From assembly GCF_003231495.1 (NCBI RefSeq), contig NZ_PQWO01000003.1, forward strand, positions 120,001-152,000: a stretch of 32,000 nucleotides of DNA. The letters run 5' to 3'. The stretch comes from Acaryochloris thomasi RCC1774. Its GTDB lineage: Bacteria > Cyanobacteriota > Cyanobacteriia > Thermosynechococcales > Thermosynechococcaceae. The notes beneath the pieces were generated by a model, which was not told the origin of the DNA, did no database searches, and saw only the letters and a list, made by a program, of their open reading frames with translations. Both the position numbers and the translations under genes were made by a program. Below are positions 3,928 through 22,290 of this stretch, piece by piece; the first letter of the stretch is position 1, and the number at the start of each line of letters is the position of its first letter.

Positions 3928-3997
3928 TTAGAGATCTGACCCGATCCCGCTAGCCTGTCACGGGGGGGAATCTGTGTGCTGTTTTGGTTACCATCCG

Positions 3998-4477
3998 TTA
4001 AATGGATAAGCCCAAGTTCAGACCGAGGACGGTGTGTACAATCAACAAAATCAGCGCTGCGCTACCTAAGTAGGCGTGGGATTTACGCAGGGCAGACTTG
4101 TCCCCCCAAAAGTTTGTGAGGGAGAGAGTGGCATTTGTTCCCAGGAGCAAAATGGCACAGGCACCCGTTAAAAAGTGAGGACTGGCCCAGATAGACTCCC
4201 CCTGCATCACCATCGACAAAGTGCCGCCAGTGGAACCTAACACGATGAAGACAAACATCAGGGCGGCCACTTTGGCATGAGCTGCGCGGTTTTCACTGGC
4301 GATCGCAGGGTCGGTCTGCAGTCGGCCCTGCCAACCTTTAACGCCTGCATAGGATCCCATTACAAAAACAACGATACCCATCATCAGCGGGTGCCCCCAA
4401 TGAATAATGGGTGCGGGTAAACCAAAGCCATCGACAAAAGCGGCAATGGGCTGTAGAAACTGCGTCAGTTGATCCAT
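3998..4477 (-). CDS. DUF4079-like integral membrane protein
   Basis: 159-aa ORF with four hydrophobic helices and conserved His contexts (HWGHPLMMG, AAHAKV, SPHF, VHTVLG). The family name is from memory. It starts 15 nt downstream of the DUF389 gene on the same strand. Confidence 0.65.
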   Translation of the reverse strand: MDQLTQFLQPIAAFVDGFGLPAPIIHWGHPLMMGIVVFVMGSYAGVKGWQGRLQTDPAIASENRAAHAKVAALMFVFIVLGSTGGTLSMVMQGESIWASPHFLTGACAILLLGTNATLSLTNFWGDKSALRKSHAYLGSAALILLIVHTVLGLNLGLSI

Positions 4478-4492
4478 GATGCGATGTGTTCT

Positions 4493-6316: not shown

Positions 6317-6564
6317 AGATCAATCACGTCAACAGTGCACGATCAATCATAGAGAGCTATCTGGACAATCACGAATCAAAAATTACGATCTTAATCTTCA
6401 CCTATCATTTAGGAGCCGCAATTCTTTATAAAGAATGTTTTTACGGCTTTCCTTGAATATATTTCCCAATTTGCAGAAAGAAAAGCCACAATGGTAAACG
6501 TGCATCCTAAGATTTATTCACTTAGCTCAACTTATTTGTAAGCCTACATACTCCCAGATTTGCT

Positions 6565-7632
6565 ATGCATAAGACCTATGATCTGCATGTCGTGGAGACT
6601 CGCCCACTTGTGAGTCCTGCTCTGCTACACCACGAATTGCCAATTTCAGACACGGCAACTCAGCTCGTGGCCAAAACGCGAGACCACATTCGCAACATCC
6701 TTTGCAATGAGGACCAGCGGCTGTTGGTGATTGTGGGTCCCTGCTCTGTACACGACGTAGAGGCAGCAAAAGAATATGGCAAGAAACTGGTCAAGCTCCG
6801 CAGCAAACTAGCGGACAGACTAGAAATTGTGATGCGGGTTTACTTTGAAAAGCCCCGTACCCGCGTCGGCTGGAAAGGCTTAATTAACGATCCACATCTC
6901 GACAACAGTTATGACATCAACAAAGGCCTGCACCTCGCCCGTCAGTTGCTGTTAGATCTAGCCGATATCGGCTTACCCGCTGCAACAGAGCTATTGGACC
7001 CAATCACCCCTCAATATATCGCCGACATTATCTCTTGGACAGCCATTGGCGCTCGCACAACCGAGAGCCAAACGCATCGAGAGATGGCCTCTGGGTTGTC
7101 AATGCCCATTGGCTTTAAGAACAACACCAACGGCAGTTTGCAGGCCGCCACTGACGCTATGATAGCGGCCAGCCAGCCCCATCATTTTCTAGGTATCAAC
7201 GCTGATGGTTTGGGCAGCATTGTCTCGACAACAGGCAACCCCGATGGGCATCTCGTCCTCAGAGGCGGCGTTAGCGGCCCCAACTATTCTGCCGGTCAGG
7301 TCATCGCGGCAGCAAAGAACCTATTCGAGCTAGGGATCAATCCTCGCTTGATGATTGACTGCAGCCACGCCAATGCGAAGAAGCAGCACGAGCGGCAAGT
7401 CGAGGTATTGAATGAGGTTGCACGACAACTGCAGGGCGGCTCTCGTCATATTCTCGGCGTCATGATTGAAAGTCATCTCGTGGCCGGAAATCAGAAAATC
7501 ACAGAAGACTTGAGCCAGCTTGTTTACGGCCAAAGCATCACAGACGCCTGCGTAGATTTTGAGACCACAGAAAAAATGCTGCACATGCTAGCGGATGCCG
7601 TAGAGCCTGCAGATGTAACCGTCTCAGTCTAG
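6565..7632 (+). CDS. aroG: 3-deoxy-7-phosphoheptulonate (DAHP) synthase, class I-alpha
   Basis: 355-aa ORF colinear with E. coli AroG/F/H: LLVIVGPCSVHD, EIVMRVYFEKPRTRVGWKGLINDP, AIGARTTESQTHRE, MIDCSHANA, GVMIESHLVAGNQ. The isozyme and feedback specificity cannot be read from sequence, so the symbol is generic. Confidence 0.93.
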   Translation: MHKTYDLHVVETRPLVSPALLHHELPISDTATQLVAKTRDHIRNILCNEDQRLLVIVGPCSVHDVEAAKEYGKKLVKLRSKLADRLEIVMRVYFEKPRTRVGWKGLINDPHLDNSYDINKGLHLARQLLLDLADIGLPAATELLDPITPQYIADIISWTAIGARTTESQTHREMASGLSMPIGFKNNTNGSLQAATDAMIAASQPHHFLGINADGLGSIVSTTGNPDGHLVLRGGVSGPNYSAGQVIAAAKNLFELGINPRLMIDCSHANAKKQHERQVEVLNEVARQLQGGSRHILGVMIESHLVAGNQKITEDLSQLVYGQSITDACVDFETTEKMLHMLADAVEPADVTVSV

Positions 7633-7664
7633 GCTGCTACGACGCCTCCCGCAGATTAGTAGGA

Positions 7665-8555
7665 GTGAAAGCATTGATTCAAGCTCGGAAGCCCCAACGC
7701 TCGACTCGAAGAGCACTGAGAGTCGTCTACACGCCAGAGAGTCAACTGAGACATCCTATTCAACTGCTGCAGGCAATGTGGCGAGACTTGTTGGCATCGC
7801 GAGAGCTTGCCTGGCAGCTGATGGTGCGGAACATTCGCGCTCAGTACCGTCAGTCGGTTTTGGGGATCGTTTGGGCGATCATCCCCGCCATTGTGACCGC
7901 AGCAATATTTACGTTTGCGAAAAGTCGTGGAATTGTTAACATTGGCACAACAGATCTGCCCTATCCAGCCTATGTTGTTTTCAGCACAACGCTATGGCTA
8001 ACATTTACAGAGTCACTGAATGGTCCTATGCAGGTAGTGACGCAGGCAAAGCAAATGTTGACTAGAATCCACTTCCCGCGTGAAGCCCTGATCCTGAGCA
8101 AGCTAGGAGAAGTTTTCTTCAATTTTGGCATCAAGATATTTCTGATCGTGGGCTTGTTTATCTGGTTCCAGATGCCGGTGACCTGGAACGTGCTTATAGC
8201 CCCAGTGGCGCTGATTCATTTAATTTTACTGGGGACCGCAATTGGCATGTTCCTAGCCCCACTGGGTGCGCTGTATCAAGATTTCTCCAAGGGTATCACC
8301 GTTCTCACGAGCCTATGGCTGTTGCTGACACCGGTTGTATACCCTGTCCCTCAAGGAGACATTCTTGAAACCGTTGTGAAGCTCAATCCCGTGACACCGC
8401 TTCTGGTCACCACGAGAGAATTGGCGACTACCGGCGTTGTCTCCGAGCCACAGAGATTTTGGATCGTTAGCGCGGCAACGTTAATCGGCTTGCTGCTGTC
8501 CTGGCTGTTTTATCGGTTGGCGATGCCGTTTGCTGTAGAAAGAATGAGTTCCTGA
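7665..8555 (+). CDS. wzm: polysaccharide ABC exporter permease (ABC-2 / Wzm type)
   Basis: 296-aa ORF with six hydrophobic segments and the ABC-2 N-terminal block RNIRAQYRQSVLGIVWAIIPA. Its stop overlaps the ATG of the ATPase gene (TGATG at 8553-8557). The GTG start is tentative. Confidence 0.85.
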   Translation: MKALIQARKPQRSTRRALRVVYTPESQLRHPIQLLQAMWRDLLASRELAWQLMVRNIRAQYRQSVLGIVWAIIPAIVTAAIFTFAKSRGIVNIGTTDLPYPAYVVFSTTLWLTFTESLNGPMQVVTQAKQMLTRIHFPREALILSKLGEVFFNFGIKIFLIVGLFIWFQMPVTWNVLIAPVALIHLILLGTAIGMFLAPLGALYQDFSKGITVLTSLWLLLTPVVYPVPQGDILETVVKLNPVTPLLVTTRELATTGVVSEPQRFWIVSAATLIGLLLSWLFYRLAMPFAVERMSS

Positions 8556-9847
8556 TGACAACAGATCTTCGAGCAGGAAGCGTCGTCGAGTCTCGAAAAG
8601 AGGAAGTTATTATCCGGGCACAGAATATCTCCAAGAAATTTTGTCGTGACCTGAAGCGATCGCTATTTTATGGCATGCAGGACATTGCCAGTGAGATAAC
8701 TGGGCTAAGGGGAGAGCGAGATGAGTTACGGTCTAAAGAATTCTGGGCTTTAAAGGACGTCAGCTTTGAACTTAAGAGGGGAGAAGCCCTAGGCCTAGTC
8801 GGCAAAAACGGCAGCGGTAAGTCCACGCTGCTGCGAATTATTGCTGGCCTGATCAAGCCAGATACAGGCACGATTGAAGTCAACGGCTGTGTTGCACCTC
8901 TGATCGCCTTGGGTGCTGGGTTTAATCCGATCCTGACAGGACGAGAAAACATTTATGCCAATATGTCAGTTCTAGGGCTGTCTCGAACAGAAATTGACGA
9001 CCGCTTTGATGAGGTCGTCGAATTTGCCGAAATTGGAGACGCTATCGATGCGCCTGTACAAAGCTACAGTTCTGGAATGGCGGCAAGATTAGGATTTGCG
9101 AGTGCTATTCACACAGAACCAGACATTATTCTAATTGACGAGGTACTGGCGGTCGGAGACGTCAAGTTCAAGACCAAATGCTACGGAAAGCTACAGCAGC
9201 TGCGAGAGAACCAGACTTCTTTCATTATGGTTAGCCACAGCTCTCACTCGATTGCGACCGTGTGTGAATCAGCACTTTACCTTAGAGCAGGGAAAAAGGT
9301 GACTGGAGGCGATACGCTTTCGGTCCTCAACACGTACGAGGACGACCTCTTCCTAGGCAAGGTGGAAAATACTTTAGGCTTCATGCAGCTCATAGAGAAA
9401 GATGCGGCAGAGAGTATGGGACTAGATATCACCTCACTTTTTTTCAGAGATCAGGACGGCAATGTCATCAACTCTCCTATTAGTGGAGAGTTGTGCTATC
9501 TGGCGATCGAATGCCTAGTGAGAAAACCGTTAGAGCAGGTGAGCGTCAATTTGGGCATTAGAGAATTGTCTGGAGAAAGCCGGTTACTGGTCTATATCAA
9601 TAGCTGGGATGACGATTTTTATCTCGATATGGCCGCAGGGAAGCACGAGATTCGAGTCAAGATTCCGTGCTTTGGCTTGGGTCTCGGGCTATACGATCTG
9701 CGGATTGCTATTCGCCAAGACAAGCTTTCTTTGCTTGACAAAGTTGAATCATTCAAATTCGCGGCCAAAAAAGCTCTCAGCCAAAGTTCTGTTAGTCTTT
9801 TTTACCAGCCTCACTCCTGGCAAGTGATTAGTCAGCAAAGTCAGTAA
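8555..9847 (+). CDS. wzt: polysaccharide ABC exporter ATP-binding protein (Wzt type) with C-terminal extension
   Basis: 430-aa ORF. Walker A GKNGSGKST, signature YSSGMAARLGFA, Walker B IILIDEVLAVGD, H-loop SHS. A ~170-aa extension follows the NBD, as in Wzt/RfbB proteins whose C-terminal beta-sandwich binds the glycan terminus. Confidence 0.9.
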   Translation: MTTDLRAGSVVESRKEEVIIRAQNISKKFCRDLKRSLFYGMQDIASEITGLRGERDELRSKEFWALKDVSFELKRGEALGLVGKNGSGKSTLLRIIAGLIKPDTGTIEVNGCVAPLIALGAGFNPILTGRENIYANMSVLGLSRTEIDDRFDEVVEFAEIGDAIDAPVQSYSSGMAARLGFASAIHTEPDIILIDEVLAVGDVKFKTKCYGKLQQLRENQTSFIMVSHSSHSIATVCESALYLRAGKKVTGGDTLSVLNTYEDDLFLGKVENTLGFMQLIEKDAAESMGLDITSLFFRDQDGNVINSPISGELCYLAIECLVRKPLEQVSVNLGIRELSGESRLLVYINSWDDDFYLDMAAGKHEIRVKIPCFGLGLGLYDLRIAIRQDKLSLLDKVESFKFAAKKALSQSSVSLFYQPHSWQVISQQSQ

Positions 9848-9864
9848 TATCATCAAGAGATGGC

Positions 9865-11679
9865 ATGAACTTAAATTTACTGCTTAGCCGATCCTCACTG
9901 GGGGTTATAGCTATTTTGCTAGTGCTCCTAGCAATACGGAATCGGGAGCGAGTTGATCGTATCGTCAACAACTTTTTCACAGAGTCAACCCATCCTCTCA
10001 ATTTAGCTATCTTTCGCATCACAGTTTTCCTAACGCTCATCAAGTTTGTTGATATTTCTTCGACCGTTTGGTTTAGTCAAATGCCAGAGCAACTGCAGTT
10101 TTTGCCTGGCAATTTAGGATGGCTATTCAATTACCTGCCTATCGATGCTTCCACAGCAAGATTAACAAGCAGCTTGATGCTGGTATTTTGCTTTACTGGA
10201 GCAATTGGGCTGTTCTCACGAACCTCCGCATTTGTGACAACAATCCTTGGCTTCTACGTTCTGGGTATTCCCCAACTATGGGGAAAGGTTAACCACTACA
10301 ACCACTTACTATGGTTCGTCGCCATCCTCGCGGTGAGTCGCTGTGGAGATTTTCTATCAGTCGATGCTATTTTTGCAGCCTGGAAACGCGCAGACGCAGG
10401 CACAACCCAGCCTCCCCAACCAGCGCGGCTTTATACTCTGCCTCTCCGCTTTGTTTGGTTGCTGATGGGGGTTATTTATTTTTTCCCAGGTTTTTGGAAG
10501 GTATGGAACTCTGGCTATCGGTGGGCCTGGAGCGATAATCTCAACTTCCAAATGTACAGAAAGTGGTTAGAGCTAGACGGCTGGGTTCCTATTTTCAGAA
10601 TTGATCAGTATCCACTGCTGAACAGAACATCAGGACTATGGACGATTGCTTGGGAACTCTCTTTTATCTTGCTTATATTCCTACCTAGGTGGCGACTTCC
10701 TGCGGCACTGATGGGTTTGTTTTTCCACAACATGACAAATCTGTTCATGCGTATCTCCTTTTGGACGCTGCAGGTCTGCTACGTTTCTTTTTTCAACTGG
10801 CACAAGATCTTCAATAGCATCGGCCGCTTCTTTTTCTCTCAGCCCATGTATGTCGTCTATGACGGTAACTGTAAGCTTTGTCGTCGCACAATTGCTTCGC
10901 TGAGAAGGTTCGATATCTTAGGGCAGATCACTTACGTCAATGCACTGAACGGTGAAGAACTTCAGGCGTGTGATCTACTTTGGATCGATCCAGAAGCTCT
11001 TTTAGAAGATATGCATACCGTTGTAGGTAAACAGTATTGGCGAGGGTTCTCTGCATATCGGGTTTTGTCTCGTCGTATTCCTGTTTTTTGGTTGATACTG
11101 CCGCTGCTGTACGTATGGCCTATTCCTAGACTTGGCAATTTTATTTACCATAAGGTCGCTGATTCGCGCACCTGTGACATCGCTAAAGTGCCTACACCGG
11201 ATAAAGGTACACTCCGTGAGACAGGCAGAAGCAACACAAAAGGAATAATAGCAGTGGGCATTCTTTTTCTGTTCTTGAACACTTTCTACAGTATTAAGTA
11301 TGAAACAGCAGCTTGGCCTTTTTCCTGCTATCCTACATTTTCTTGGATACAGAAGCCTCAAGAGAAGCTCCTTGAAGTTATTCCTTTAGATGCTTCAGGA
11401 GAGCCTATTTCACTTGCTACTAGTGAAAGATCCATCAAGCAATACTTATCTCCCCCGCGAGTCGATAGCTTAGTTAAGAAGCTTCTGAAAACCAATGAAT
11501 TGGCTGAGAAGGAAAGACGCCTTCAGGCTTTCTGGCAGCTTTTAGCTCAAAATGATGCTCGTCTAAATCAGGCAGTATCAGTAGATTTTTACGAAGTGAG
11601 ACTTCAGCTAGATCCAGAACGACAAGACGAAAACCCGATTAGTCAAGAACTAGCCTACCGTCTAAAACTGCAGAGATAG
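9865..11679 (+). CDS. HTTM (vitamin K-dependent gamma-carboxylase-like) membrane domain fused to DCC-family thiol-disulfide oxidoreductase domain plus unknown C-terminal domain
   Basis: 604-aa ORF.
- aa ~40-315: polytopic domain with HTTM-like blocks (LNLAIFRITVFLTLI; NHYNHLLWFVAILAVSRCGDFLSVDA).
- aa ~328-435: DUF393/DCC pattern with DxxCxxC (VVYDGNCKLCRRTIASLRRFD; Cys codons at 10870 and 10879) and IYHKVADSR.
- aa ~460-604: one TM helix plus a hydrophilic tail.
Domain names were recognised by eye, not by HMM. Confidence 0.75.
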   Translation: MNLNLLLSRSSLGVIAILLVLLAIRNRERVDRIVNNFFTESTHPLNLAIFRITVFLTLIKFVDISSTVWFSQMPEQLQFLPGNLGWLFNYLPIDASTARLTSSLMLVFCFTGAIGLFSRTSAFVTTILGFYVLGIPQLWGKVNHYNHLLWFVAILAVSRCGDFLSVDAIFAAWKRADAGTTQPPQPARLYTLPLRFVWLLMGVIYFFPGFWKVWNSGYRWAWSDNLNFQMYRKWLELDGWVPIFRIDQYPLLNRTSGLWTIAWELSFILLIFLPRWRLPAALMGLFFHNMTNLFMRISFWTLQVCYVSFFNWHKIFNSIGRFFFSQPMYVVYDGNCKLCRRTIASLRRFDILGQITYVNALNGEELQACDLLWIDPEALLEDMHTVVGKQYWRGFSAYRVLSRRIPVFWLILPLLYVWPIPRLGNFIYHKVADSRTCDIAKVPTPDKGTLRETGRSNTKGIIAVGILFLFLNTFYSIKYETAAWPFSCYPTFSWIQKPQEKLLEVIPLDASGEPISLATSERSIKQYLSPPRVDSLVKKLLKTNELAEKERRLQAFWQLLAQNDARLNQAVSVDFYEVRLQLDPERQDENPISQELAYRLKLQR

Positions 11680-11694
11680 ATCAAAAAAAGGACT

Positions 11695-12627
11695 ATGAGC
11701 AAGCCAGTTAATTCAATTGATGATCCTTTTTTTATAGTGTATGACTCTAGATCAGGCTCAACCTTCCTGGCTAATCTCCTTGTTAAATTTGCTGGGGCAG
11801 CAATACCGCCAGAGTCCAACTTCATTACGGGCCTGCTCTCTAAATACCCTAAGCACACAATAGATCACAGCTTTGATTTGGAAAAAGCGATAGAAGTTGT
11901 CTACGAAGACAGCAAGTTCAGAGACTGGAATTTAAGTCAATCAGAAATAGAACACTACATCCAAAAAAATTTTCCTATAGAGGTTAGAGATTTCGTACTT
12001 CAGATCTGTACCCTATATCGGAACAAGTACTATCCCAACTCTCAAGCTTTCGGCTTAAAAAAAGGTGTCTACCTCGATAGGCATAAAGAGATGAAAATGA
12101 TGTTCCCGAGTTCGAGGTTCATCGGCATACTCAGGGATGGAAGAGCTGTCTTCAATTCCAAAAAGCATAGTATTTACTCGGTAACAGGCCAAGCATTTGA
12201 GACAAACGCACGTAGCGCTGCTGAAGAGTGGTGCAGGATATATGGTCTTCTTCGAAAAGTAGACCAAAAGTATCCGAACGAAGTAGTAACGATACGATAT
12301 GAGGACATGATTCGAGAGCCAGGCGGCATTGTAAGTACGCTGTGTAATTTTCTCCACATACCTCAACTCAGCGAGTGTTCAGAAAAACAGCAAAGCTATG
12401 CTATTCCGGCTAGGTATGGCGACCTTCATTTGAATGTCAACAAAGAGCCGTTGGTAGAGAGAGCTACGGCCTGGCGCAAATCTCTGTCTGACGAAGAAGT
12501 CTATGTCTTTGAATCATGTGCATACCGCCAGCTACTTGCAGCAGGTTATCCGGTAGTCAACACCAGAATGCGGCTTAGGAGTAACCAAATCATAGAAAAA
12601 TGCAGGTCTTTCTTAAGTCTTGGATGA
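11695..12627 (+). CDS. PAPS-dependent sulfotransferase family protein
   Basis: 310-aa ORF. It has a 5'-phosphosulfate-binding loop YDSRSGSTFLANLL near the N-terminus and a 3'-phosphate-binding motif IGILRDGRAVFNS. Confidence 0.8.
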   Translation: MSKPVNSIDDPFFIVYDSRSGSTFLANLLVKFAGAAIPPESNFITGLLSKYPKHTIDHSFDLEKAIEVVYEDSKFRDWNLSQSEIEHYIQKNFPIEVRDFVLQICTLYRNKYYPNSQAFGLKKGVYLDRHKEMKMMFPSSRFIGILRDGRAVFNSKKHSIYSVTGQAFETNARSAAEEWCRIYGLLRKVDQKYPNEVVTIRYEDMIREPGGIVSTLCNFLHIPQLSECSEKQQSYAIPARYGDLHLNVNKEPLVERATAWRKSLSDEEVYVFESCAYRQLLAAGYPVVNTRMRLRSNQIIEKCRSFLSLG

Positions 12628-12658
12628 TTTTCCTTAACAACAGAGGATTGTAAATAAG

Positions 12659-13897
12659 GTGGCAAAAAAAATAAAATCTATCCTGTATGTATCTCTAGGA
12701 AATCTACCTTCAAAACTGGCTTCAAGTATTCAAGTTGCAAAGATGTCGCAGGCCATAGGGCAAAAGGTAAAGGATTTCGCACTGGTAACGAGCGGAGACA
12801 TTCTCTCAGCGATCAGGGGAATGGAAGCTGGCTTTCAGAGTTGGTACGCAATACGCCATAGATTCAAGTTGATACGCATACCTGTACATTTTCAGGCAAA
12901 GTATCCCTTTCCTAAAAATTACGCGAAGGAGAGATATTTTAAGTGGGCTGTTTTGTATGCCTGTCTTAGATCTCCAACCCTTGTGTATACTCGCTCCTAT
13001 CCCATCGTTTCTCTCTTATTGGAGACAGATATTCCGATTCTCTGGGAGCAACATGAGCTCCTTCCAGAGAAACTACCGGAAGATTCTCTCTACCATCGGC
13101 TTTTCGCCAGCGATAGTCTAGTGGGGCTAGTTACCCTTTCGCCCCTAATAGCGAAGAACTATATTAAAAACGGGCTGAGCACAGAAAAGGTCTTAATTGC
13201 ACACAGTGGTGTTGATATCAGCATTTTTCAACCCTATCGTTCCAAAAGCGAGGCTCGTAAACACTTATCTTTAACGGGTGATCGAAAAATCATTCTCTAC
13301 GGAGGTCATCTTTACGAACACAAAGGAATGGGGACTCTCGTAGAAACTGCTCTACGAATGCCAGAATGCAGGTTCATTTTGGTAGGAGGGTGGCAAGCGG
13401 ATATAGAAAGAGTAAAAGCCGCTTGTCGTCAAAAAAACGTGCGTAATGTAATTGTTGTCGGACACGTTTCTCAGTCCGTGTTGGCAATGTACCTCTACGC
13501 GGCAGATGTTCTGCTGCTACCAACTAGCAAGCAGTGGCAGCTTGCACAAACGACTAGTCCAATGAAGCTGTTTGAGTATATGGCAGTGCAAAGGCCCATT
13601 GTTGCTTCCGCATTGCCGAATATCATGACGGTGCTGCGCGACCGCGAAAATGCACTCTTGGCTGAGCCTGATCAGCCACAGTCTTTTCAACAAGCAATCA
13701 CGGAACTGCTTGAGAAGCCTGCGTTAGCAGATGAGATAGCAAAACAAGCGTTTCGAGAGGTCGATCAATACACCTGGGATAGTCGGGCTGAAATTATCTT
13801 GCGATTTGCAGAGGAAAGGCTAGAGAAGATGAATTTTCAGCCGAAGGCCAGAAGAAATATCTTATTCAAGTATCTCAAGACAATCACTTTTACATAG
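12659..13897 (+). CDS. glycosyltransferase, GT-B fold (family 4/group 1-like)
   Basis: 412-aa ORF with a GTG start. The C-terminal half carries ILYGGHLYEHKGM, FILVGGW and the KLFEYMAVQRPIVASALPN block typical of group-1 glycosyltransferases. Confidence 0.8.
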   Translation: MAKKIKSILYVSLGNLPSKLASSIQVAKMSQAIGQKVKDFALVTSGDILSAIRGMEAGFQSWYAIRHRFKLIRIPVHFQAKYPFPKNYAKERYFKWAVLYACLRSPTLVYTRSYPIVSLLLETDIPILWEQHELLPEKLPEDSLYHRLFASDSLVGLVTLSPLIAKNYIKNGLSTEKVLIAHSGVDISIFQPYRSKSEARKHLSLTGDRKIILYGGHLYEHKGMGTLVETALRMPECRFILVGGWQADIERVKAACRQKNVRNVIVVGHVSQSVLAMYLYAADVLLLPTSKQWQLAQTTSPMKLFEYMAVQRPIVASALPNIMTVLRDRENALLAEPDQPQSFQQAITELLEKPALADEIAKQAFREVDQYTWDSRAEIILRFAEERLEKMNFQPKARRNILFKYLKTITFT

Positions 13898-14261
13898 GAG
13901 GATGTCTAAGATTGTCATTCTCCTGACACTAATTTGAGGGTCAAACTGATACCTCAACAGATGATGTTGGTTGTTCCAAATTTAGCCGCAGGACTGATTT
14001 TGGATCTTTTTGATCAATGAATGAGCCATATCATGATTATGGTTCTATAATAATCTAACAGCCAGAAGTAAAGCTAGGCGTGACTTTGTCTCCGAGCCGC
14101 TGTGCTGAATTGCTCCTTCCGTTTTGAATGTGGCGGGTGCACTAGATCCAAACTATCTCATGCAGGAAATCTTGAGTCAAAGCATCCCTGAAGGCATGTA
14201 AGGCGAACATTTCCTATAGGATTGTCCCATTTCCTAATCTATTTAACTGGCTAAAGCGAGG

Positions 14262-15197
14262 ATGTCTGTCCGTATCTCTGCCATCATCTGTACGTTCAAT
14301 CGCTCTAAATATCTTCAGAAAGCAATTCAAAGTCTGATCGATCAGACGCTTGAAAAATATGAGTATGAGATTTTGGTCGTTGATAATTGTTCAGTAGATG
14401 ATACTCGAAAGGTTGTCGATGATAAATCTAGAATCGCTGGAAACTTACACTATATCTATGAATCCGAAATTGGACTCTCCAAAGCTCGCAATACGGGATG
14501 GGAGGCTGCGAAGGGTGAATATATTGCTTATTTGGATGATGATGCGATCGCAACTCCTCACTGGCTCGCAACCCTACTGCACAACTTTGAAAACATAACG
14601 CCTAAACCGGCTTGCATCGGTGGAAAAATCGATCCAATTTGGGAAGCTGAGCGACCCGAGTGGCTTCCAGACAAGTTACTGCCTTACCTAACGATATTAG
14701 ACTGGTCTAGCGAATTGATAATAATTGATGAGAACCAGTATATCGCTGGAGCCAATATGGCCTTTACTCAACAAGCATTAACTCTCGCAAATGGTTTTCA
14801 AACTAAATTTGGGCGCAGGGGTAAGAAGTTGCTTTCCAATGAAGAGCTTGTACTCCAAAATCAGATTCGAAAGCACGGTTTAGACATTTATTACAATCCT
14901 GAAGCTGTTGTCGAGCACCATGTTGTTGCTGATCGTTTACAGCAAAACTGGTTCGTAAAAAGAACGTACTGGCAAGGCGTATCTCGCGCCTTCTTAATTG
15001 TTAGTGAACAATCCCCCTCAGTTTTACAACAGTGGAAGATGGGAGTCTATTCACTGCTAAATTTGCTCAAATCACCTAAGCGGATTGTCAAGTCACTGCT
15101 TCCTAGTCGCAATCCTCGCTACCTACAGGCTAGATGTAGTACTGCAAGCAATATTGGATACATTGTGGGACTATTGACCGCAAAGGGTGGTGAATGA
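14262..15197 (+). CDS. glycosyltransferase family 2
   Basis: 311-aa ORF. GT-A N-terminus ISAIICTFNRSKYLQKAIQSLIDQT, DNCSVDDT, and the DxD region YLDDDAI. GAGG lies directly upstream of the ATG. Confidence 0.88.
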   Translation: MSVRISAIICTFNRSKYLQKAIQSLIDQTLEKYEYEILVVDNCSVDDTRKVVDDKSRIAGNLHYIYESEIGLSKARNTGWEAAKGEYIAYLDDDAIATPHWLATLLHNFENITPKPACIGGKIDPIWEAERPEWLPDKLLPYLTILDWSSELIIIDENQYIAGANMAFTQQALTLANGFQTKFGRRGKKLLSNEELVLQNQIRKHGLDIYYNPEAVVEHHVVADRLQQNWFVKRTYWQGVSRAFLIVSEQSPSVLQQWKMGVYSLLNLLKSPKRIVKSLLPSRNPRYLQARCSTASNIGYIVGLLTAKGGE

Positions 15198-16477
15198 CTG
15201 TTTCTGCAGCAGAGAGCCTCTGCCTAAAACTTGAGGAAGAAACCCGCACTCTCTTTTTAACTCGCTATGCCCCCTATCCGCCTTCTAGTGGAGCACCCTT
15301 ACGCAACTGGCAAAACATCAACGCTCTAATGTTGCTAGGGCCTGTCGCCGTTTTCTCCATTTCGGGTTTCAAGGGGGAAGCAGTCGATGATTCTGAGCTA
15401 CCACCCGGCTTAACGCTTTGGAAACACCACAAGTTAGATACATTTACTCAGCCAAGATCTATGGCTGAAAAATTCTCTCAGTGGCTTATTTCTGATCAGT
15501 TACCAGGTTCTAGGCTGCTGACTGATGTAGTGGTCAGTGAAAAACTAAAGAGCCTTATCCAGGAATTCAAGCCTAATCTCGTTATTTTTGAAGAACTCTG
15601 GCTGTATGCTTATCTGCCTGTTGTTAAGGAGTTCGGATGCCGAGTTATTTTAGACAACCACAATATAGAGGGTCCACTCTACTTAGATAAGCAAAGCCAA
15701 AATCAAGATCTTCTCAATCGAATTAAGATTTCATTTATCTTCCAAAAAATCAAAACGATAGAGCATCGGTTCGCAAATCAAGCCAATCAGGTTTGGCTTT
15801 GCAGCCAAGCTGACGCCGAACAATTTCTAGATCGTTACGAAACCTCTACACAATTGTGTGTTGTTCCAAATGGCGTTGATGTTAATTTCTACAGTAGTGT
15901 CCGCTTGGGTAACTGCCACCTGCCCAGAGATATAGCAGAAGACCAACAGGTTCTTTTGTTCATTGGGCGCTATTCATACACCCCCAATGCTGTTGCAGCC
16001 AGGCTCCTTTTAGAACAAATTTTTCCAAAACTCCAAAGACTTTATCCCGACTGTTTACTGGTGCTGGTTGGAGCATCACCGACCCAACAGATGCTAGCGA
16101 CATCTCAATCGGCTAAAAATATATGGATAACAGATTTTGTAAGTGATGTTCGCCCATATCTAGCTCTATCAACGGCTGTGATTGTTCCTCTCATAGATGG
16201 TGGGGGTACTCGCCTAAAAATTTTAGAGGCATTTGCTTCTGGCCGTCCTGTCGTTAGCACGACAAAAGGAGCTGAAGGTCTAAACGTTGAAGATGGGAAG
16301 CAGATTTTGATTAGAGATAGTGTTGATGAGTTAGTAAAAGGCATCGGTGATTTGTGGTCAGACTCTGATCATAAAGGCAAACTTATCGAAAGGGCTTATG
16401 AGCTCGTCAAGAACAACTACTCTTGGGAAGCGAATGCCAGAGCAATTATCAAAAACCTGAAATTTCTTCAACAATGA
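15194..16477 (+). CDS. glycosyltransferase, GT-B fold (family 4/group 1-like)
   Basis: 427-aa ORF with an ATGA start/stop overlap with the upstream GT2. LLFIGRYSYTPNAVAA and GGGTRLKILEAFASGRPVVSTTKGAEGL blocks. Confidence 0.85.
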   Translation: MTVSAAESLCLKLEEETRTLFLTRYAPYPPSSGAPLRNWQNINALMLLGPVAVFSISGFKGEAVDDSELPPGLTLWKHHKLDTFTQPRSMAEKFSQWLISDQLPGSRLLTDVVVSEKLKSLIQEFKPNLVIFEELWLYAYLPVVKEFGCRVILDNHNIEGPLYLDKQSQNQDLLNRIKISFIFQKIKTIEHRFANQANQVWLCSQADAEQFLDRYETSTQLCVVPNGVDVNFYSSVRLGNCHLPRDIAEDQQVLLFIGRYSYTPNAVAARLLLEQIFPKLQRLYPDCLLVLVGASPTQQMLATSQSAKNIWITDFVSDVRPYLALSTAVIVPLIDGGGTRLKILEAFASGRPVVSTTKGAEGLNVEDGKQILIRDSVDELVKGIGDLWSDSDHKGKLIERAYELVKNNYSWEANARAIIKNLKFLQQ

Positions 16478-16700
16478 AAACCCTAAAACTAGATCCAAAA
16501 ATAGATTTTTGCATATGTTTTTAAACAGAATATTCTGCAAAATAGGCATCAGGAAATTCATCCTCGACCAAAGATTGAAATGAGCACAAAAAGAGATGTT
16601 TTGATCATGGAATGACTAACCTTCTTTGTGCAAATGGAGGCTTTACTAAGCAGTAGATCATGGTTCTCTAAAAGTTTTTTCGGTTAAAAATAATGAAAAG

Positions 16701-17843
16701 GTGAAAGATTTGACAAGCCATCCAAAAATCAGTGTAGTCATGTCAGTGTATAACGGTGAGCTTTTCCTAGAGCAGTCTATGGAAAGTATTCTCTCTCAAA
16801 CCTACGCTAACTTTGAGTTGATATTGATCGACGACTGTTCTACGGATAACACCATCCAAATTCTAGAACATTACGCGCAGCGTGATTGGAGGATTAGGCT
16901 ATTCAGAAATAAGGAAAACATTGGATTAACTAAGTCGCTTAACAAGGGGTTAGAATTAGCGAAAGGAGAATACGTCGCCAGACAAGATGCTGACGATATT
17001 TCTTTGCCTGAAAGATTTGAAACGCAAGTAACATTTCTAGATAATCATCCAGAGATTGGATTAGTGTCTTGCAATATGGAAATTATTAACTTTGAAGGTC
17101 ATAAAACTGGAGAGCACAAAAGGGCCTGTTCGTCAGAATTTGTTAGCTGGTATCTCTTGTTCTACAATCGCTTGGCAGGGCACAGCCAGGTTACTTTCAG
17201 ACGGCAGCTCATAACAAAATTAGGGGGATACGATGAGCAGCGTCGCTTTAGTCAAGACTACGAACTTTGGTCACGGGTAGCGAAGGTCAGCAAGATCGCT
17301 ATTCTCTCAGAGACTTTGCTTAAGCAGAGAATACACAATTCCAGTGTCTCTACAACGAGGTCTTCAGAGCAAAGGAGCTACAGCCTCAGTCAGTCAAAGC
17401 ACAATATTGAGGAATTGATCAGCAAGGAAATCAACTTAGAGGAGGTCGTCCTTCTAAGAAATTTTTGGCTGAGCTGCTGGCCTCTCATTTCTAGTCTAGA
17501 AATTCGTGAGTCAATTTATAACTTAAACTCAAGGCTAATAGATATTTACCAGAGTTTTACCCAACAGAGTAGTCAGCGAGGTGACGATGTCAAAGCAGAG
17601 TTATCTCAATGCTTACGCATCTTAATTGGGAAGCAGTTCCTTGCGTGGGTGCAGTTTCCTATGAAAGCAGATCATACTCTATTCCCAAAGCTTTGGATCT
17701 CCTACTATGCCTTTTTCTGGTGTCCACAGGGGGTGCCAATTAGCTGGCTTATATTACTCTGGAGAACCTTACCAAAATGGCTGAAGCTGCCGGTTCGAAA
17801 GGGTTATAGGATTTCCAGGAATCTATTTAAAGTTAAGACATAG
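16701..17843 (+). CDS. glycosyltransferase family 2 (paralog A)
   Basis: 380-aa ORF with a GTG start. KISVVMSVYNGELFLEQSMESILSQTY, LIDDCSTDNT, ARQDADDIS. Clearly paralogous to the ORF at 18863-19939. Confidence 0.88.
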   Translation: MKDLTSHPKISVVMSVYNGELFLEQSMESILSQTYANFELILIDDCSTDNTIQILEHYAQRDWRIRLFRNKENIGLTKSLNKGLELAKGEYVARQDADDISLPERFETQVTFLDNHPEIGLVSCNMEIINFEGHKTGEHKRACSSEFVSWYLLFYNRLAGHSQVTFRRQLITKLGGYDEQRRFSQDYELWSRVAKVSKIAILSETLLKQRIHNSSVSTTRSSEQRSYSLSQSKHNIEELISKEINLEEVVLLRNFWLSCWPLISSLEIRESIYNLNSRLIDIYQSFTQQSSQRGDDVKAELSQCLRILIGKQFLAWVQFPMKADHTLFPKLWISYYAFFWCPQGVPISWLILLWRTLPKWLKLPVRKGYRISRNLFKVKT

Positions 17844-17853
17844 ATGCTACGAT

Positions 17854-18858
17854 ATGAGAAAGATATTAGTAACCGGCGCTGCTGGATTTATTGGTTTTCA
17901 TATATGCCAAGAATTACTAGCCAGAGATGAAGCTGTAATAGGTCTCGACAATTTAAATGATTACTATGACGTTGGCCTAAAGCAGGCACGTTTAGATAGG
18001 CTTACTATCCAGAAAAATTTTCAGTTCTTTCGAGTCGATTTAGCCGAGCGCACTGAAATTGCAAATTTATTCAGTTCCTGTAAACCTGATCTTGTCATTC
18101 ACCTAGCTGCTCAAGCTGGTGTACGTCATTCACTAACACATCCTCATGCATACATTGATAGTAATTTAGTTGGCTTTGCCAACATTCTAGAAGGATGCCG
18201 AAGTATAGAGGTTAAGCACCTCATTTTCGCTTCTTCTAGTTCAGTTTACGGGGCTAATACCAAAATCCCCTTTGCTGTTGGTGACTTTGTTGATCATCCT
18301 GTTAGTCTTTATGCAGCTACGAAAAAGGCGAACGAACTTATGGCCTTCACTTATAGCCACTTATACGCTTTGCCGGCGACTGGTTTGCGATTTTTCACGG
18401 TTTACGGGCCCTGGGGTAGACCTGACATGGCTTATTTTTCATTTACGCGCTCAATTCTTCGCGGCGAACCCATTAAGGTCTTTAACTATGGCAAGATGCG
18501 CCGAGACTTCACCTACATCCGTGATATTGTAGCGGGCATAGTAAAAATCTTGGAAAAGCCTCCTTCATATGCTGGAACTGATATGAAGCTTGGGTCAGAG
18601 TCAACTATTGCTCCCTACAAAATTTACAATATCGGTAACAATCAGCCTATCGAGCTGCTGGCTTTTATAGAAGTCTTAGAAAACTGCTTGGGTATCGAAG
18701 CTAATAAAAAGTTATTGCCGATACAGCCTGGGGACATGCTCGAAACCTATGCTGATATCAGCGAATTGTCACATGATATAGGTTTTAGGCCAAGCACCTC
18801 CATTGAATCTGGCCTAAGGTATTTTGTCGACTGGTACCGTTCATACTATGGAGTGTAG
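17854..18858 (+). CDS. NAD-dependent nucleotide-sugar epimerase, UDP-glucuronate 4-epimerase-like (SDR)
   Basis: 334-aa ORF. Rossmann motif GAAGFIGFH, catalytic YAATKKANE (YxxxK), and FFTVYGPWGRPDMAYF, colinear with CapI/LpsL/GAE-type UDP-GlcA 4-epimerases. The exact substrate is inferred. Confidence 0.85.
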   Translation: MRKILVTGAAGFIGFHICQELLARDEAVIGLDNLNDYYDVGLKQARLDRLTIQKNFQFFRVDLAERTEIANLFSSCKPDLVIHLAAQAGVRHSLTHPHAYIDSNLVGFANILEGCRSIEVKHLIFASSSSVYGANTKIPFAVGDFVDHPVSLYAATKKANELMAFTYSHLYALPATGLRFFTVYGPWGRPDMAYFSFTRSILRGEPIKVFNYGKMRRDFTYIRDIVAGIVKILEKPPSYAGTDMKLGSESTIAPYKIYNIGNNQPIELLAFIEVLENCLGIEANKKLLPIQPGDMLETYADISELSHDIGFRPSTSIESGLRYFVDWYRSYYGV

Positions 18859-18862
18859 GCTT

Positions 18863-19939
18863 ATGTCTATATTAGCTCCTAAAATCAGCGTGTTAATGGG
18901 AGTCTACAACGGATCTTGCTATCTGCGAGAATCTGTTAGCAGTATCCTCAATCAGACTTTTTCTAATTTTGAGTTTGTTATTATTGATGATGCTTCTAAT
19001 GATAATACATGGGATATATTGACAAGTCTCTCAAAGCAAGACGAACGTATTAAGCTGATCAGAAACAAGCAAAATATTGGCTTGACTCGCTCATTAAACA
19101 AAGGTCTTGTCATTGCTCAAGGCGAGCTGATCGCACGACAAGATGCAGACGATATCTCTTTACCAATTCGCTTCGAGAAACAAGTCCAATTTTTAGATCA
19201 GCGGCCCAGCGCTGTTCTCGTCTCTGGATGTTATGAGTACATCGATGCTGAAGGCATTTCCTTCAAAACAGTTCGGGTCGCAGGTGGTCCAGACATAACG
19301 GCGTGGTATTTGCTGTTCTACAACCGTATTGGGGCTCACGGGCTGGCGATGTTCCGGCGGCAGGTGGTCGCAGAAATCGGTGGCTATTCGGAAGACTATC
19401 GCTACAGTCAAGATTACGAGCTGTGGTCAAGATTAGTTGATACGGGTGATCTAGTAGTTTTGCCAGACGTTCTTCAACTCTATCGGCGCGATCACGACAG
19501 CAGTATCTCAGTCAAATTTAGCTCAGTTCAGCAAGATCTTGCTTTACAAGTAACAGCTCAAAATATTACGAACGTCATTGGAGAAGGAATGAGCAAAGAA
19601 GCTCTCATTGACCTAAGAAATTTCTGGGTAGGACAATATCTCGAGATTCAAGATATCGGTGCTCTCTACGCAAACCTTAAAAAGATACATCGGGCATTTA
19701 TACAGCAGCGTTCGAAGATAGCTTCTTACTCAGGCACAGGTGTGAGTCGCAGGTTAGGAGATGTTGTACTTTTACGCTTTTTGTGTTGGACGAATTTATT
19801 TAGCTCTTCTCATGACTGGCATCGAAAAGCTAAAGTTATACGTTGTGCATTTCTATGGAACCCAGTAAAAGCCATTAATTTATTCTCGAGACGAGCATTC
19901 CGTAACTTACCTCGCTCAATCAAAACTTTTCCGATATAA
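18863..19939 (+). CDS. glycosyltransferase family 2 (paralog B)
   Basis: 358 aa from ATG 18863 (MSILAPKISVLMGVYNG...). IIDDASNDNT, ARQDADDIS. The ORF-track start at 18824 would overlap the epimerase by 35 nt and adds non-conserved residues. Confidence 0.86.
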   Translation: MSILAPKISVLMGVYNGSCYLRESVSSILNQTFSNFEFVIIDDASNDNTWDILTSLSKQDERIKLIRNKQNIGLTRSLNKGLVIAQGELIARQDADDISLPIRFEKQVQFLDQRPSAVLVSGCYEYIDAEGISFKTVRVAGGPDITAWYLLFYNRIGAHGLAMFRRQVVAEIGGYSEDYRYSQDYELWSRLVDTGDLVVLPDVLQLYRRDHDSSISVKFSSVQQDLALQVTAQNITNVIGEGMSKEALIDLRNFWVGQYLEIQDIGALYANLKKIHRAFIQQRSKIASYSGTGVSRRLGDVVLLRFLCWTNLFSSSHDWHRKAKVIRCAFLWNPVKAINLFSRRAFRNLPRSIKTFPI

Positions 19940-20233
19940 GAAGGGTCTGCATTCGTAGCTTTTTAGTCAATCTGTTATCGATTTCACTGTATATGATTTG
20001 GCATTAGTTTTAGCTAATGAGTATGCTATATTGCGTAGAATCTCGGCTACTAAGCTTATTGCTCAAGCAATCCAGCGAACATTTCCATGACATGGATTTG
20101 TAGAGTAAGGGTCTTATCATCGTGTGAACGCAGCCTATCTGAGGATGCTGACTCAGCTCGTGGCTCTCACTACAGTATTTTTTAAGCCTTTAACAGTCAC
20201 CCAGCATCTCAACTATTCCCCGTCGTTAATTTC

Positions 20234-21328
20234 ATGATTCAGACGACTAAGAAATATCTAAACGTTTTTTTCTGGCCTTCTTGGCCGAACAATCCTTACC
20301 AAGTGCTGCTCGCTCATGCCCTAGAGCCGCTCGGGGTGAAGGTTGAGATTGTTCCATCTAGCAATCGGCTACTGCGTGCAGGCGTTCAAGAACAACAACC
20401 CGCCTATCTCCACTTTCATTCTCTGTACTATCTGTTCACAGCTCCTAAACCGTTCATTGCTTGGCTCCGTTCTATCAAAGCCCTTTTTTGGCTGTTAACG
20501 CTGAGACTGAGCGGCAAAACTTTGATTTGGACGGTTCACGATCTCCAAAATCACGATGATCGAAATCCTTGGGTAGATTGGTTCTTCAGCTTCTGTTTTT
20601 CTAGGCTAGCGCAAGGTATTATCCTTCACTCAGAGCGCATTCAGCAGCAGTTTGTGCAAAGATTCAGAATTGCCGAAACGCGGAAGCTCTACGTTATTCC
20701 TCACGGCCACTATCTTGAGTGTTATCCCAACCACATTCAGCCTAGTGAGGCTCGTCACAGCCTAAATCTCAGAAAAGACCAGCTTACTTTTTTGTTCTTG
20801 GGTCTAATTCGTCCCTACAAGGGAGTGCCTGAACTAATTTCAGCATTCCAAAGTTTGTCCACAGAGTCGGCTCAACTTGCGATCGCAGGCAAACCGGCCT
20901 CAGAAGAAATCGGCAACCAAATTAGAGACGCCATTCAGGACGACTGCAATATTCATCTCTGGCCGACATACATTGAAGAAGACCAGATTCAGGTCTACAT
21001 GAACGCCGCGGACGTCGTAGTTTTTCCCTATCGCAGAGTTCTGACATCTGGCTCTATTGTCTTAGCAATGTCTTTTGGTCGCGCTTGTATCGCACCTCAA
21101 GAGGGTGGGATACAAGATGTCCTTGATTCCTCCGGTGCATTTCTATACGACTCTAGGCAGCCGATAGGGCTTGCTCAAGCCATGCAAGCGTCCATTGAGA
21201 ATCGAGAACTCCTGGCAACAATGGGCACATACAATCGTCAAAAGGTACAGCAATGGAGCTGGCAAGATATTGCACAGCAGACCCATGCTGTTTACCAAGC
21301 GAGCGTTAGCGCGGGAAAAATATTGTGA
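20234..21328 (+). CDS. glycosyltransferase, GT-B fold (family 4/group 1-like)
   Basis: 364-aa ORF. C-terminal blocks FLFLGLIRPYKGV and VVVFPYRRVLTSGSIVLAMSFGRACIAPQEGG. Confidence 0.78.
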   Translation: MIQTTKKYLNVFFWPSWPNNPYQVLLAHALEPLGVKVEIVPSSNRLLRAGVQEQQPAYLHFHSLYYLFTAPKPFIAWLRSIKALFWLLTLRLSGKTLIWTVHDLQNHDDRNPWVDWFFSFCFSRLAQGIILHSERIQQQFVQRFRIAETRKLYVIPHGHYLECYPNHIQPSEARHSLNLRKDQLTFLFLGLIRPYKGVPELISAFQSLSTESAQLAIAGKPASEEIGNQIRDAIQDDCNIHLWPTYIEEDQIQVYMNAADVVVFPYRRVLTSGSIVLAMSFGRACIAPQEGGIQDVLDSSGAFLYDSRQPIGLAQAMQASIENRELLATMGTYNRQKVQQWSWQDIAQQTHAVYQASVSAGKIL

Positions 21329-22290
21329 CGCACCCTTCGAATATTTCCACTTCGTCAACGTCAACAAAGCCCCTCGTTACCATCATTATCAACAACTACA
21401 ATTATGAGCAATTTATTAGCGATGCAATCAATAGCGCCTTGGCCCAAACCTATCACCCAGTTGAGATAATTGTTGTTGATGACGGTTCCACGGATCGCTC
21501 TCGAGACGTCATCAACAGCTATGGTTCTAAATTGAATCCAATCTTCAAAGAGAATGGGGGACAAGCTTCTACTTTCAATACGGGGTTTAAAGCAAGTCAA
21601 GGAGACGTTATTTGTCTCCTTGACTCCGATGATTTATTCCACCCAGAGAAGGTATTGGAGGTAGTTTCAGCATTTCAAGCGGACGAAAATATTCGCTGGT
21701 TCTTTCATCAACTCAAAGTGGAGCACTTGTCTACAAAAGAGGTTATTAGACTCTCTCCCAACAGGGATTCAGGCCCCTACGATTTTAGAGAACCCATGCG
21801 AGCCGGTTCAAGTGTAGAATTTTCACCGCCTTCAACATCAGGGTTGTGCTTTTCTCGTGTATTACTCCAGGAGATCCTTCCCATGCCTGAGGCCGAAGAT
21901 ATCGTTATGAGCGACCTCTATCTGAAGCTTTCTTCAATGGCTTTATACAAAGGATTTTATCTCAATCGTCCTCTTGGAGTGGTCAGAGTCCACAGCAATA
22001 ATCGATACACAGAGAAGCGTGGTAGACACCTCCTAAAGGGAAATATCGAGATCACTACAGCTTATTACTTGCGACAAAAGTGGAGATTTTTGAGTCGGCT
22101 ATCCAATAATTTATTTTGCTTAGGTATGTCTGACCTATCTAAAGCAAAAAAGGTTGATTTGAGATATCAAAATACTGGATACATATTATCAAAGTACTTG
22201 CGGTCTATATCACCGTTGGGCCAACCGAAGATCAAGCTAAAGATAAGTTTTTTCTGCCTTAAAATACTTTTGAAGCGGCTAAAAAACTAG
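21325..22290 (+). CDS. glycosyltransferase family 2
   Basis: 321-aa ORF with a GTG start in a GTGA overlap with the upstream stop. VTIIINNYNYEQFISDAINSALAQTY, VVDDGSTDRS, LLDSDD. Confidence 0.85.
   Translation: MTHPSNISTSSTSTKPLVTIIINNYNYEQFISDAINSALAQTYHPVEIIVVDDGSTDRSRDVINSYGSKLNPIFKENGGQASTFNTGFKASQGDVICLLDSDDLFHPEKVLEVVSAFQADENIRWFFHQLKVEHLSTKEVIRLSPNRDSGPYDFREPMRAGSSVEFSPPSTSGLCFSRVLLQEILPMPEAEDIVMSDLYLKLSSMALYKGFYLNRPLGVVRVHSNNRYTEKRGRHLLKGNIEITTAYYLRQKWRFLSRLSNNLFCLGMSDLSKAKKVDLRYQNTGYILSKYLRSISPLGQPKIKLKISFFCLKILLKRLKN

Follow-up and report, generated by a model that had tools for sequence, protein, structure and literature searches.

A GGCX/HTTM-like Membrane Protein with an Inserted DCC Domain in a Glycan-Export Locus of Acaryochloris thomasi

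Introduction

So far, chemistry of the type performed by the vitamin K-dependent carboxylase GGCX has been known from two settings, glutamate residues of animal proteins and a single bacterial natural product. Here we analyse a membrane protein of 604 amino acids (aa), which combines a GGCX/HTTM-like core with an inserted DCC domain. It is encoded by the open reading frame (ORF) 9865..11679 of a 32,000-nucleotide (nt) stretch of DNA from the cyanobacterium Acaryochloris thomasi RCC1774 (contig NZ_PQWO01000003.1, positions 120,001 to 152,000; hereafter the window). The ORF lies among genes of glycan export and assembly and may point to a kind of cell-surface glycan modification that has yet to be described. 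Its product is 100% identical to C1752_01217 of the same strain, a hypothetical protein labelled 'HTTM-like domain-containing' in UniRef, and the architecture carries the database labels DCC1-like and HTTM-like.

In the structure papers on GGCX, K218 was assigned as the base deprotonating vitamin K hydroquinone, N159, H160 and Y395 as the residues holding the substrate carboxylate, and F286, F294, F299, V210, W223 and H160 as the lining of the pocket for the quinone head and CO2. The lumenal domain follows transmembrane (TM) helix 9, and T391-H404 form the linker between the transmembrane and lumenal domains. The window protein resembles GGCX in transmembrane fold, profile match, catalytic lysine, and the histidine and aromatic residues of the pocket, as well as in the succession of core, cytoplasmic loop, last TM helix and extracytoplasmic domain. 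It differs in sequence (about 14% identity), in carrying a DCC domain where GGCX has a short, disordered loop, in an extra N-terminal helix, and in an unrelated 125-aa domain that replaces the lumenal propeptide-binding and arch domains; its gene lies amid glycan genes and not with genes of gamma-carboxyglutamate (Gla) proteins. Since the substrate-binding domain differs, the window protein is not regarded as an orthologue of GGCX.

In bacteria, MloH of malonomycin biosynthesis was described as a vitamin K-dependent carboxylase of an aspartyl residue in a polyketide-nonribosomal peptide intermediate (Law et al. 2018). MloH is thus described as a bacterial GGCX-type enzyme with experimentally supported activity, whose HTTM core is fused to an outer domain as in the window protein; it belongs to a natural-product cluster, and no DCC domain is reported for it. 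A preliminary description of the window had called bacterial HTTM proteins essentially uncharacterised, a statement that MloH, presented in the literature as a bacterial orthologue catalysing aspartyl carboxylation, contradicts. A 447-aa HTTM+DCC1-like protein of Melghirimyces thermohalophilus has been predicted to pair with an adjacent TM+DUF5819 protein in a GGCX-like assembly, in which conserved Lys, Trp and Phe residues adjoin a co-folded menaquinol, a prediction only (bioRxiv 10.64898/2026.08.19.745780). In both systems HTTM is followed by DCC1-like in one chain, the same Lys, Trp and Phe are kept, and a TM helix with an extracytoplasmic domain completes the assembly; this last part is a separate protein in Melghirimyces, whereas it is the C-terminus of the same chain here. 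By layout, the window protein looks like a single-chain version of that assembly; Pfam DUF5819 was detected neither in it nor in 34 relatives, so that homology between the two outer domains is conjectural.

The CxxC of VKOR faces the lumen or periplasm within a bundle of four TM helices. What VKOR and the cyanobacterial VKOR-thioredoxin fusion may have in common with the window protein is a CxxC unit coupled to membrane quinone chemistry; the window CxxC is found in a soluble thioredoxin-like domain, predicted on the cytoplasmic side, and no VKOR domain was detected (Pfam scan at E ≤ 1; no VKOR among the Foldseek hits). SdpB of Bacillus subtilis, an HTTM membrane protein with a small partner, SdpA, works in maturing an exported product. 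That substrate is a peptide toxin, and the NCBIfam SdpA and SdpB models gave no match to the window protein at E ≤ 1. A literature search on HTTM, DCC, SdpA/SdpB, and gamma-carboxylase with glycosyltransferase found no study of the present family or of its glycan link.

Membrane Core and Putative Active Site

By predicted fold, profile and putative active-site residues, the window protein belongs to the HTTM/GGCX superfamily. The Pfam HTTM model PF05090 does not match it even at E ≤ 1, nor does any NCBIfam family at this threshold. Among 34 full-length homologues of 45-72% identity (alignment A1), PF05090 is matched by five (best E 1.8e-7), and scores of 37.0 and 29.3 bits were obtained for the relatives P0132 and P0144 (cutoff 27.7). 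Comparison of the family profile with human GGCX, the sequence of which had first been checked against the PDB, by hhalign gave a probability of 89% and an E of 2.3e-6, with aa 37-299 paired to GGCX 54-298. The AlphaFold2 (AF2) model of the window protein (pLDDT 90, pTM 0.89) retrieved human GGCX at ranks 1-15 in a Foldseek search of the PDB (E 1e-6 to 6e-4, probability 1.0, TM-score about 0.41 over the whole chain), and no other entry was significant. The whole-family profile found nothing among the PDB sequences at E ≤ 1. The HTTM domain suggested earlier at aa ~40-315 is thus upheld through the Pfam matches of relatives, hhalign and Foldseek, and the proposed structural comparison with the vitamin K carboxylase found GGCX as the only significant match; of the proposed Pfam checks, that for DCC succeeded directly (58.9 bits) while that for HTTM failed on the window protein itself and succeeded in the five relatives.

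Residues were mapped onto GGCX by sequence alignment only, without coordinate superposition, and conservation was counted over 190 non-identical family members. The counterpart of the catalytic base K218 is K212, whose context YFFPGFWK pairs with YFIAGVKK of GGCX and which is kept in 189 members. Similar conservation was found for W220 (189/190), H288 and F299 (188/190 each), E264 (188/190), D167 and H144 (186/190 each), and H147 (178/190). Either W214, which is paired by hhalign, or W220 could be the counterpart of GGCX W223. In spite of an uncertain register at H144/H147, the positions aligned with the quinol-activating residues of GGCX thus rank with the best conserved of the family. The analogy with the vitamin K carboxylase, which the preliminary description had drawn, is strengthened by the retention of the catalytic lysine and the quinone-pocket residues.

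The same residues bear on the possibility that quinone chemistry has been lost, and that the protein is a non-redox membrane component of glycan synthesis, such as a coupling factor or scaffold of Wzm/Wzt or an enzyme of the ligase or transferase kind on lipid-linked sugars. The gene does stand directly after wzt, the window protein falls below the Pfam HTTM threshold, and B. subtilis SdpB is needed for peptide maturation without known carboxylation. Nevertheless, the quinol-deprotonating and quinone-pocket residues of GGCX are nearly invariant here, and members are found in Wzx/Wzy-type clusters as well as in loci that lack an ABC exporter, so that we consider a non-redox role most improbable.

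Architecture and Topology

A hidden Markov model (HMM) built from A1 was run over the ORFs called in 80 loci of GTDB species genomes. In type A, of about 600-680 aa, the core is followed by DCC, a TM helix and the C-terminal domain, while type B, of about 450-560 aa and without DCC, has the core joined straight to the TM helix and C-terminal domain, with the motif SWPF-x-x-YPTF directly after the helix. As judged from these sequences, DCC is an optional insertion into the cytoplasmic loop of a three-part GGCX-like scaffold. The end-to-end fusion of two domains that had been supposed before gives way to this arrangement because the relatives devoid of DCC keep the TM helix and the C-terminal domain. 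A chance fusion or misassembly was rejected since the architecture is common to hundreds of full-length homologues. We hold the architecture and homology, a GGCX/HTTM-like core with DCC, with high confidence.

From the position of the lumenal domain after TM9, it follows that GGCX residues 313-360, between TM8 and TM9, are cytosolic, and the DCC domain occupies the loop matching these residues. In type B, the TM helix and C-terminal domain come straight after the core; the DCC insert, including its hydrophobic stretch IPVFWLILPLLYVWPIP, therefore cannot cross the membrane. Lysine and arginine residues around the last TM helix number 2.72 before and 0.94 after it (mean over 158 members). In P0100 a GT2 glycosyltransferase domain is fused directly before TM1, and that side is therefore cytoplasmic. 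Parity with type B, the charge counts and the P0100 fusion together predict a cytoplasmic DCC domain and a periplasmic aa 478-604 on the side of the active site. The topology check proposed earlier thereby favours the cytoplasmic face for the CxxC, unlike in VKOR.

The additional TM helix and tail noticed earlier were confirmed, the former at aa 458-477 and the latter as a folded domain at aa 478-604. Comparison of this C-terminal domain with GGCX 350-758 gave no similarity (hhalign probability 0.05%), and its model found no match among PDB folds by Foldseek (best E 0.27); the candidate explanation of a diverged GGCX lumenal domain is therefore unsupported. The WPFSCYPTF motif may be the counterpart of the linker between the transmembrane and lumenal domains of GGCX.

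Two fusions of the family were noted apart from the type A and type B forms. P0100 (L005:10001-12721) is a protein of 906 aa with the N-terminal GT2 glycosyltransferase in a Wzx-type glycan cluster, and P0132, of 1046 aa, has a C-terminal DUF6298 extension.

The DCC Domain

Pfam PF04134 matches aa 330-435 of the window protein at E 1.4e-15 and 58.9 bits (cutoff 27.8), over profile positions 1-107 of 113, and is the sole Pfam domain found in a scan at E ≤ 1; all 34 relatives in A1 match it. With D333, C336, C339 and the stretch IYHKVADSR all present, the DCC/DUF393 signature recognised in the preliminary description is confirmed. The DCC region gave chance-level matches only against PDB sequences, and no solved DCC structure was found.

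A DCC domain is carried by 159 of the 190 members, and both cysteines are kept in 140 of these (88%). The remaining 19 (12%) lost one or both, among them P0008, which is 60% identical to the window protein and lies in the same wzm-wzt-X-sulfotransferase synteny, X being the family gene. In the AF2 model and sequence, the CxxC starts 13 residues past the end of a TM helix, beside a hydrophobic stretch, and is thus well placed to meet a quinone or epoxide in the inner leaflet. Supply of DCC in trans by a neighbouring gene was rejected, as no free-standing DCC gene occurs within ±8 kb of the DCC-less relatives.

An alternative is a DCC domain that does not reduce quinone or epoxide. With the core working as proposed below, it may sense or switch redox state, dock a cytoplasmic partner (e.g., a glycosyltransferase or Wzt), or be a remnant in decay. 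Its absence from 31 members, the loss of CxxC even in an orthologue of the same operon context, its location on the face opposite the active site and the missing compensating gene all speak for such a role. Both cysteines and the aspartate are, however, retained in 88% of members over deep divergence, the position near the membrane and beside a conserved hydrophobic stretch suits a membrane quinone, and VKOR and DsbB are well-known cases of chemistry between thiols and quinones. We rate a non-reductase DCC as rather unlikely. An obligatory pairing of carboxylase and VKOR-like reductase, as drawn earlier from the vitamin K cycle, is weakened by the cytoplasmic CxxC, opposite the active site, and by its loss in 19 of 159 members, one of them in the same synteny.

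The hydrophobic stretch deserves separate mention. IPVFWLILPLLYVWPIP, at aa 405-421 inside the Pfam DCC match, is rich in proline and has basic residues at either end. Parity with the DCC-less relatives implies that it dips into the membrane without crossing, and DCC domains in general could use such an element for contact with quinone.

Genomic Context and Distribution

In the window, a DAHP synthase gene, wzm, wzt, the ORF, the sulfotransferase gene and then GT4 and GT2 glycosyltransferase (GT) and epimerase/dehydratase genes follow each other on the same strand. The gap between wzt and the ORF is 17 nt, not 18 nt as described before, while the gap of 15 nt to the sulfotransferase is correct; on these gaps, the proposed co-expression with glycan genes stands as a likely operon with wzt and the sulfotransferase. 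Promoter and terminator scans over window 6200-23000 gave matches at chance level.

The order wzt-X-sulfotransferase-GT1 recurs with P0002 (71% identity), as in the window, and P0008 is accompanied by wzm, wzt, two sulfotransferases, GT1 and GT2. Glycan clusters of differing composition surround P0004 (68%) and P0011 (55%), and in Thermodesulfobacteriota P0110 lies 7 nt behind a GT4 gene. For type A, GT2/GT4 make up 26 of 173 neighbours (15%) within ±2 genes, and a glycosyltransferase is found within ±4 genes in 21 of 46 loci; the corresponding figures for type B are 11 of 103 (10.7%) and 10 of 29 loci. Pfam annotation of 150 neighbours gave GT1/GT4 16 times, GT2 nine, Pyr_redox_2 eight, Wzy_C and Phosphodiest four each, and Bac_transf and sulfotransferase three each. 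Glycosyltransferases, usually 1-2% of genes, are strongly enriched among the neighbours across phyla relative to this general expectation, which stands in place of a measured control, and the loci are phylogenetically non-independent. The preliminary description had counted a lack of any link to glycan clusters across genomes against its proposal; such a lack was not found, because the link recurs in orthologues and other phyla.

These neighbourhoods have to be weighed against a carboxylase that acts on a secreted or periplasmic polypeptide, with the glycan genes reflecting a shared envelope regulon. The substrates of the characterised relatives are amino-acid residues (Glu for GGCX, an aspartyl residue, as described, for MloH), the residues holding the Glu carboxylate in GGCX have conserved counterparts, and about half of the loci, e.g., those of Coleofasciculus and a Chloroflexia metagenome-assembled genome (MAG), have no glycan genes nearby. 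On the other side, no conserved gene for a small protein or precursor peptide was seen beside the family gene among the neighbours surveyed, the propeptide-binding domain of GGCX is replaced by an unrelated domain, and GT enrichment, the GT2 fusion and the wzt/sulfotransferase synteny point to glycans. A polypeptide substrate therefore seems unlikely to us. If the substrate is a protein after all, vitamin K-dependent carboxylation would be extended to bacterial envelopes.

The architecture, which had been thought unusual, is common, annotated in databases and present in the 2026 preprint on Melghirimyces. When 1.84 billion representatives were scanned with HMMER, 1125 clusters (50% identity) reached E ≤ 1e-30 and 2938 reached E ≤ 1e-10. 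The family has members in Cyanobacteria, Acidobacteriota, Chloroflexota, Planctomycetota, Omnitrophota, Bacteroidota, Myxococcota, Binatia and further phyla. These taxa are mostly producers of menaquinone or phylloquinone. Relative to the preliminary description, the analogy with the vitamin K carboxylase and the link to glycans are strengthened, and there is less to be said for a rare fusion or for an obligatory cycle of carboxylase plus reductase.

Proposed Mechanism

Our tentative proposal, in which we place somewhat less than even confidence, is that the window protein is a quinol/O2-dependent, base-generating inner-membrane enzyme of the GGCX type, acting at the periplasmic face on an exported glycan or an associated substrate, with DCC as an accessory thiol module. 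Its components differ in standing. We find quinol-dependent catalysis more likely than not and incline slightly towards a role in the glycan pathway; DCC as a quinone or epoxide reductase is possible, if doubtful. Quinone use is favoured by an NDH-2-like gene upstream in six loci, by UbiA fused to DCC-less relatives and by the prevalence of menaquinone or phylloquinone producers among the taxa with the family.

In this scheme, the core would bind reduced prenyl-naphthoquinone (phylloquinol in the cyanobacterium), and K212 would deprotonate the quinol. Reaction with O2 would then produce a strong base and, as a by-product, quinone epoxide. At the periplasmic face, where the C-terminal domain and the WPFxCYPTF linker would position the substrate, the base would take a weakly acidic C-H proton from it, and carboxylation might or might not ensue. 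Genomic context alone suggests as the most likely substrate the sulfated glycan that Wzm/Wzt export, or its lipid or protein acceptor. The CxxC of DCC would draw electrons from cytoplasmic thiols and hand them to quinone or epoxide in the inner leaflet, as a recycling or priming step that some lineages have lost; DCC is viewed as an accessory module because some orthologues have lost it.

Several observations weigh against this proposal. PF05090 misses the window protein, the H144/H147 register against GGCX is uncertain by up to three residues, no equivalent of GGCX Y395 could be mapped in the window protein, and the C-terminal domain resembles neither the lumenal domain of GGCX nor, by Foldseek, any PDB fold. 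The CxxC and the active site are on opposite membrane faces in the predicted topology, and DCC is absent from 31 of 190 members; thiol chemistry is not indispensable for the pathway role, as CxxC was lost in 19 of 159 members including P0008. On the side of context, the GT enrichment is set against a general expectation over related loci, about half of the loci show no glycan genes nearby, and the NDH-2 linkage is limited to one clade. We know of no carboxylated sugar.

A more specific version would make the protein the first GGCX-type enzyme on carbohydrates, abstracting the proton alpha to a sugar carboxylate (e.g., C5-H of a uronic acid in the exported sulfated polymer) for C-carboxylation or polymer-level epimerisation, with DCC re-reducing the quinone. 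We consider it quite improbable as a whole. If true, C-carboxylation of a sugar would yield a Gla-like gem-dicarboxylate binding calcium on the polymer, and re-reduction of the quinone by DCC would give bacteria a vitamin K cycle that is complete in itself and devoted to modifying glycans.

What is added to the known GGCX-type chemistry is a large bacterial family of many phyla (>1000 clusters at 50% identity). By alignment it retains the lysine of catalysis and the pocket for quinone; it is repeatedly embedded in glycan-assembly genes and once fused to GT2, and has an outer domain without known fold. Should polysaccharides or their carriers prove to be what the enzyme modifies, a further class of glycan modification would be defined, and phylloquinone or menaquinone would gain a physiological role not seen before. 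Because the cytoplasmic CxxC module is optional, nature itself provides an experiment on the supply of reduced quinone to such enzymes.

Features of the Locus and Minor Observations

The features of the ORF and its neighbours are collected in Table 1.

Table 1. Coordinates of the ORF, its parts and adjacent genes in the window.
Feature	Position	Strand	Basis or remark
Whole ORF, GGCX/HTTM-like membrane protein with inserted DCC domain	9865..11679	+	ATG start, 604 aa
N-terminal hydrophobic helix (aa 3-25), then R-rich cytoplasmic segment (aa 26-43)	9871..9939	+	AF2 helices, charge counts
HTTM/GGCX-like transmembrane core (aa 37-323)	9973..10833	+	hhalign, Foldseek, PF05090 matches in relatives
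H144-Y-N-H147	10294..10305	+	H147 pairs with GGCX H160, N146 with N159
K212, aligned with GGCX catalytic base K218	10498..10500	+	hhalign; 189/190 members
H288...F299 segment FFHNMTNLFMRISF	10726..10761	+	pairs with GGCX YFHCMNSQLFSIGM (F299), quinone-head/CO2 pocket
DCC1-like thioredoxin-fold domain (aa 328-435), in loop equivalent to GGCX TM8-TM9	10846..11169	+	Pfam PF04134
DxxCxxC motif: D333, C336, C339 (DGNCKLC)	10861..10881	+	sequence
TM helix (aa 458-477), equivalent to GGCX TM9	11236..11295	+	AF2 helix; charge counts
Periplasmic alpha/beta domain, family-specific (aa 478-604)	11296..11676	+	AF2 pLDDT 83 modelled alone
WPFSCYPTF motif at periplasmic membrane interface	11314..11340	+	family-wide, including DCC-less members
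wzm	7665-8555	+	glycan-export ABC transporter
wzt	8555-9847	+	glycan-export ABC transporter; stop 17 nt before ORF ATG
Sulfotransferase	11695..12627	+	ATG 15 nt past ORF stop
Eight glycosyltransferases (GT4 and GT2) and NAD-dependent epimerase/dehydratase	12659..22290	+	same strand throughout

The NDH-2-like flavoprotein gene encodes about 417-446 aa and stands 20-65 nt upstream of the family gene on the same strand in L010, L015, L018, L019, L022 and L042, six Nostocales/Crinalium loci with a full-length family copy (eight loci in the cluster). Its product has the motifs GGGFAG, FTPFLYE, GGGPSGVE and TAQAAYQQ, two GxGxxG and a C-terminal amphipathic helix, and could be a dedicated quinone reductase supplying quinol. 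In other Nostoc loci, the upstream gene encodes a PMT_2-like GT-C protein.

In MAGs of Flavobacteriia (L074:5074-7716(-), L080:5115-7760(-) and L075:4385-7564(-)), type B genes lie beside or are fused to UbiA prenyltransferases, the fusions being an 880-aa UbiA+family protein and a 1059-aa UbiA+GT4+GDSL protein. With two PhyH dioxygenases, a WelO5-like 2-oxoglutarate enzyme, an ABC ATPase, UDP-glucose dehydrogenase and an epimerase in the flanks, these loci look like an undescribed gene cluster for a glycolipid or prenylated aromatic compound. A PF01663 protein of the type I phosphodiesterase/alkaline-phosphatase kind, of about 455-552 aa (mostly ~538), was found next to the family gene or at most two genes away in MAGs from several phyla (L004:6976-8592, L009:2474-4084, L043:1293-2660 and L045:7453-9069) and may be a recurrent partner.

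Shikimate-pathway genes occur beside wzm in two clusters. A genuine DAHP synthase of the AroF/G/H type (6565-7632, +) lies 33 nt 5' of wzm in the window, and a genuine AroA (EPSP synthase; 3596-4945, +) lies about 0.9 kb 5' of wzm in the orthologous cluster L088. This may be coincidence or may be related to naphthoquinone supply.

Farther along the window, a cytochrome P450 is encoded at 27455-29065 (+), the longest ORF having GTG at 27455 and overlapping the 5' end of an alpha/beta-hydrolase ORF (26666-27571, -) by about 117 nt. Its real start is probably further downstream, as the Pfam match begins only at aa 105. Genes for DPOR subunit B (22402-23955, -), CbiD and a nitrilase of the Nit6803 family are found near the P450.

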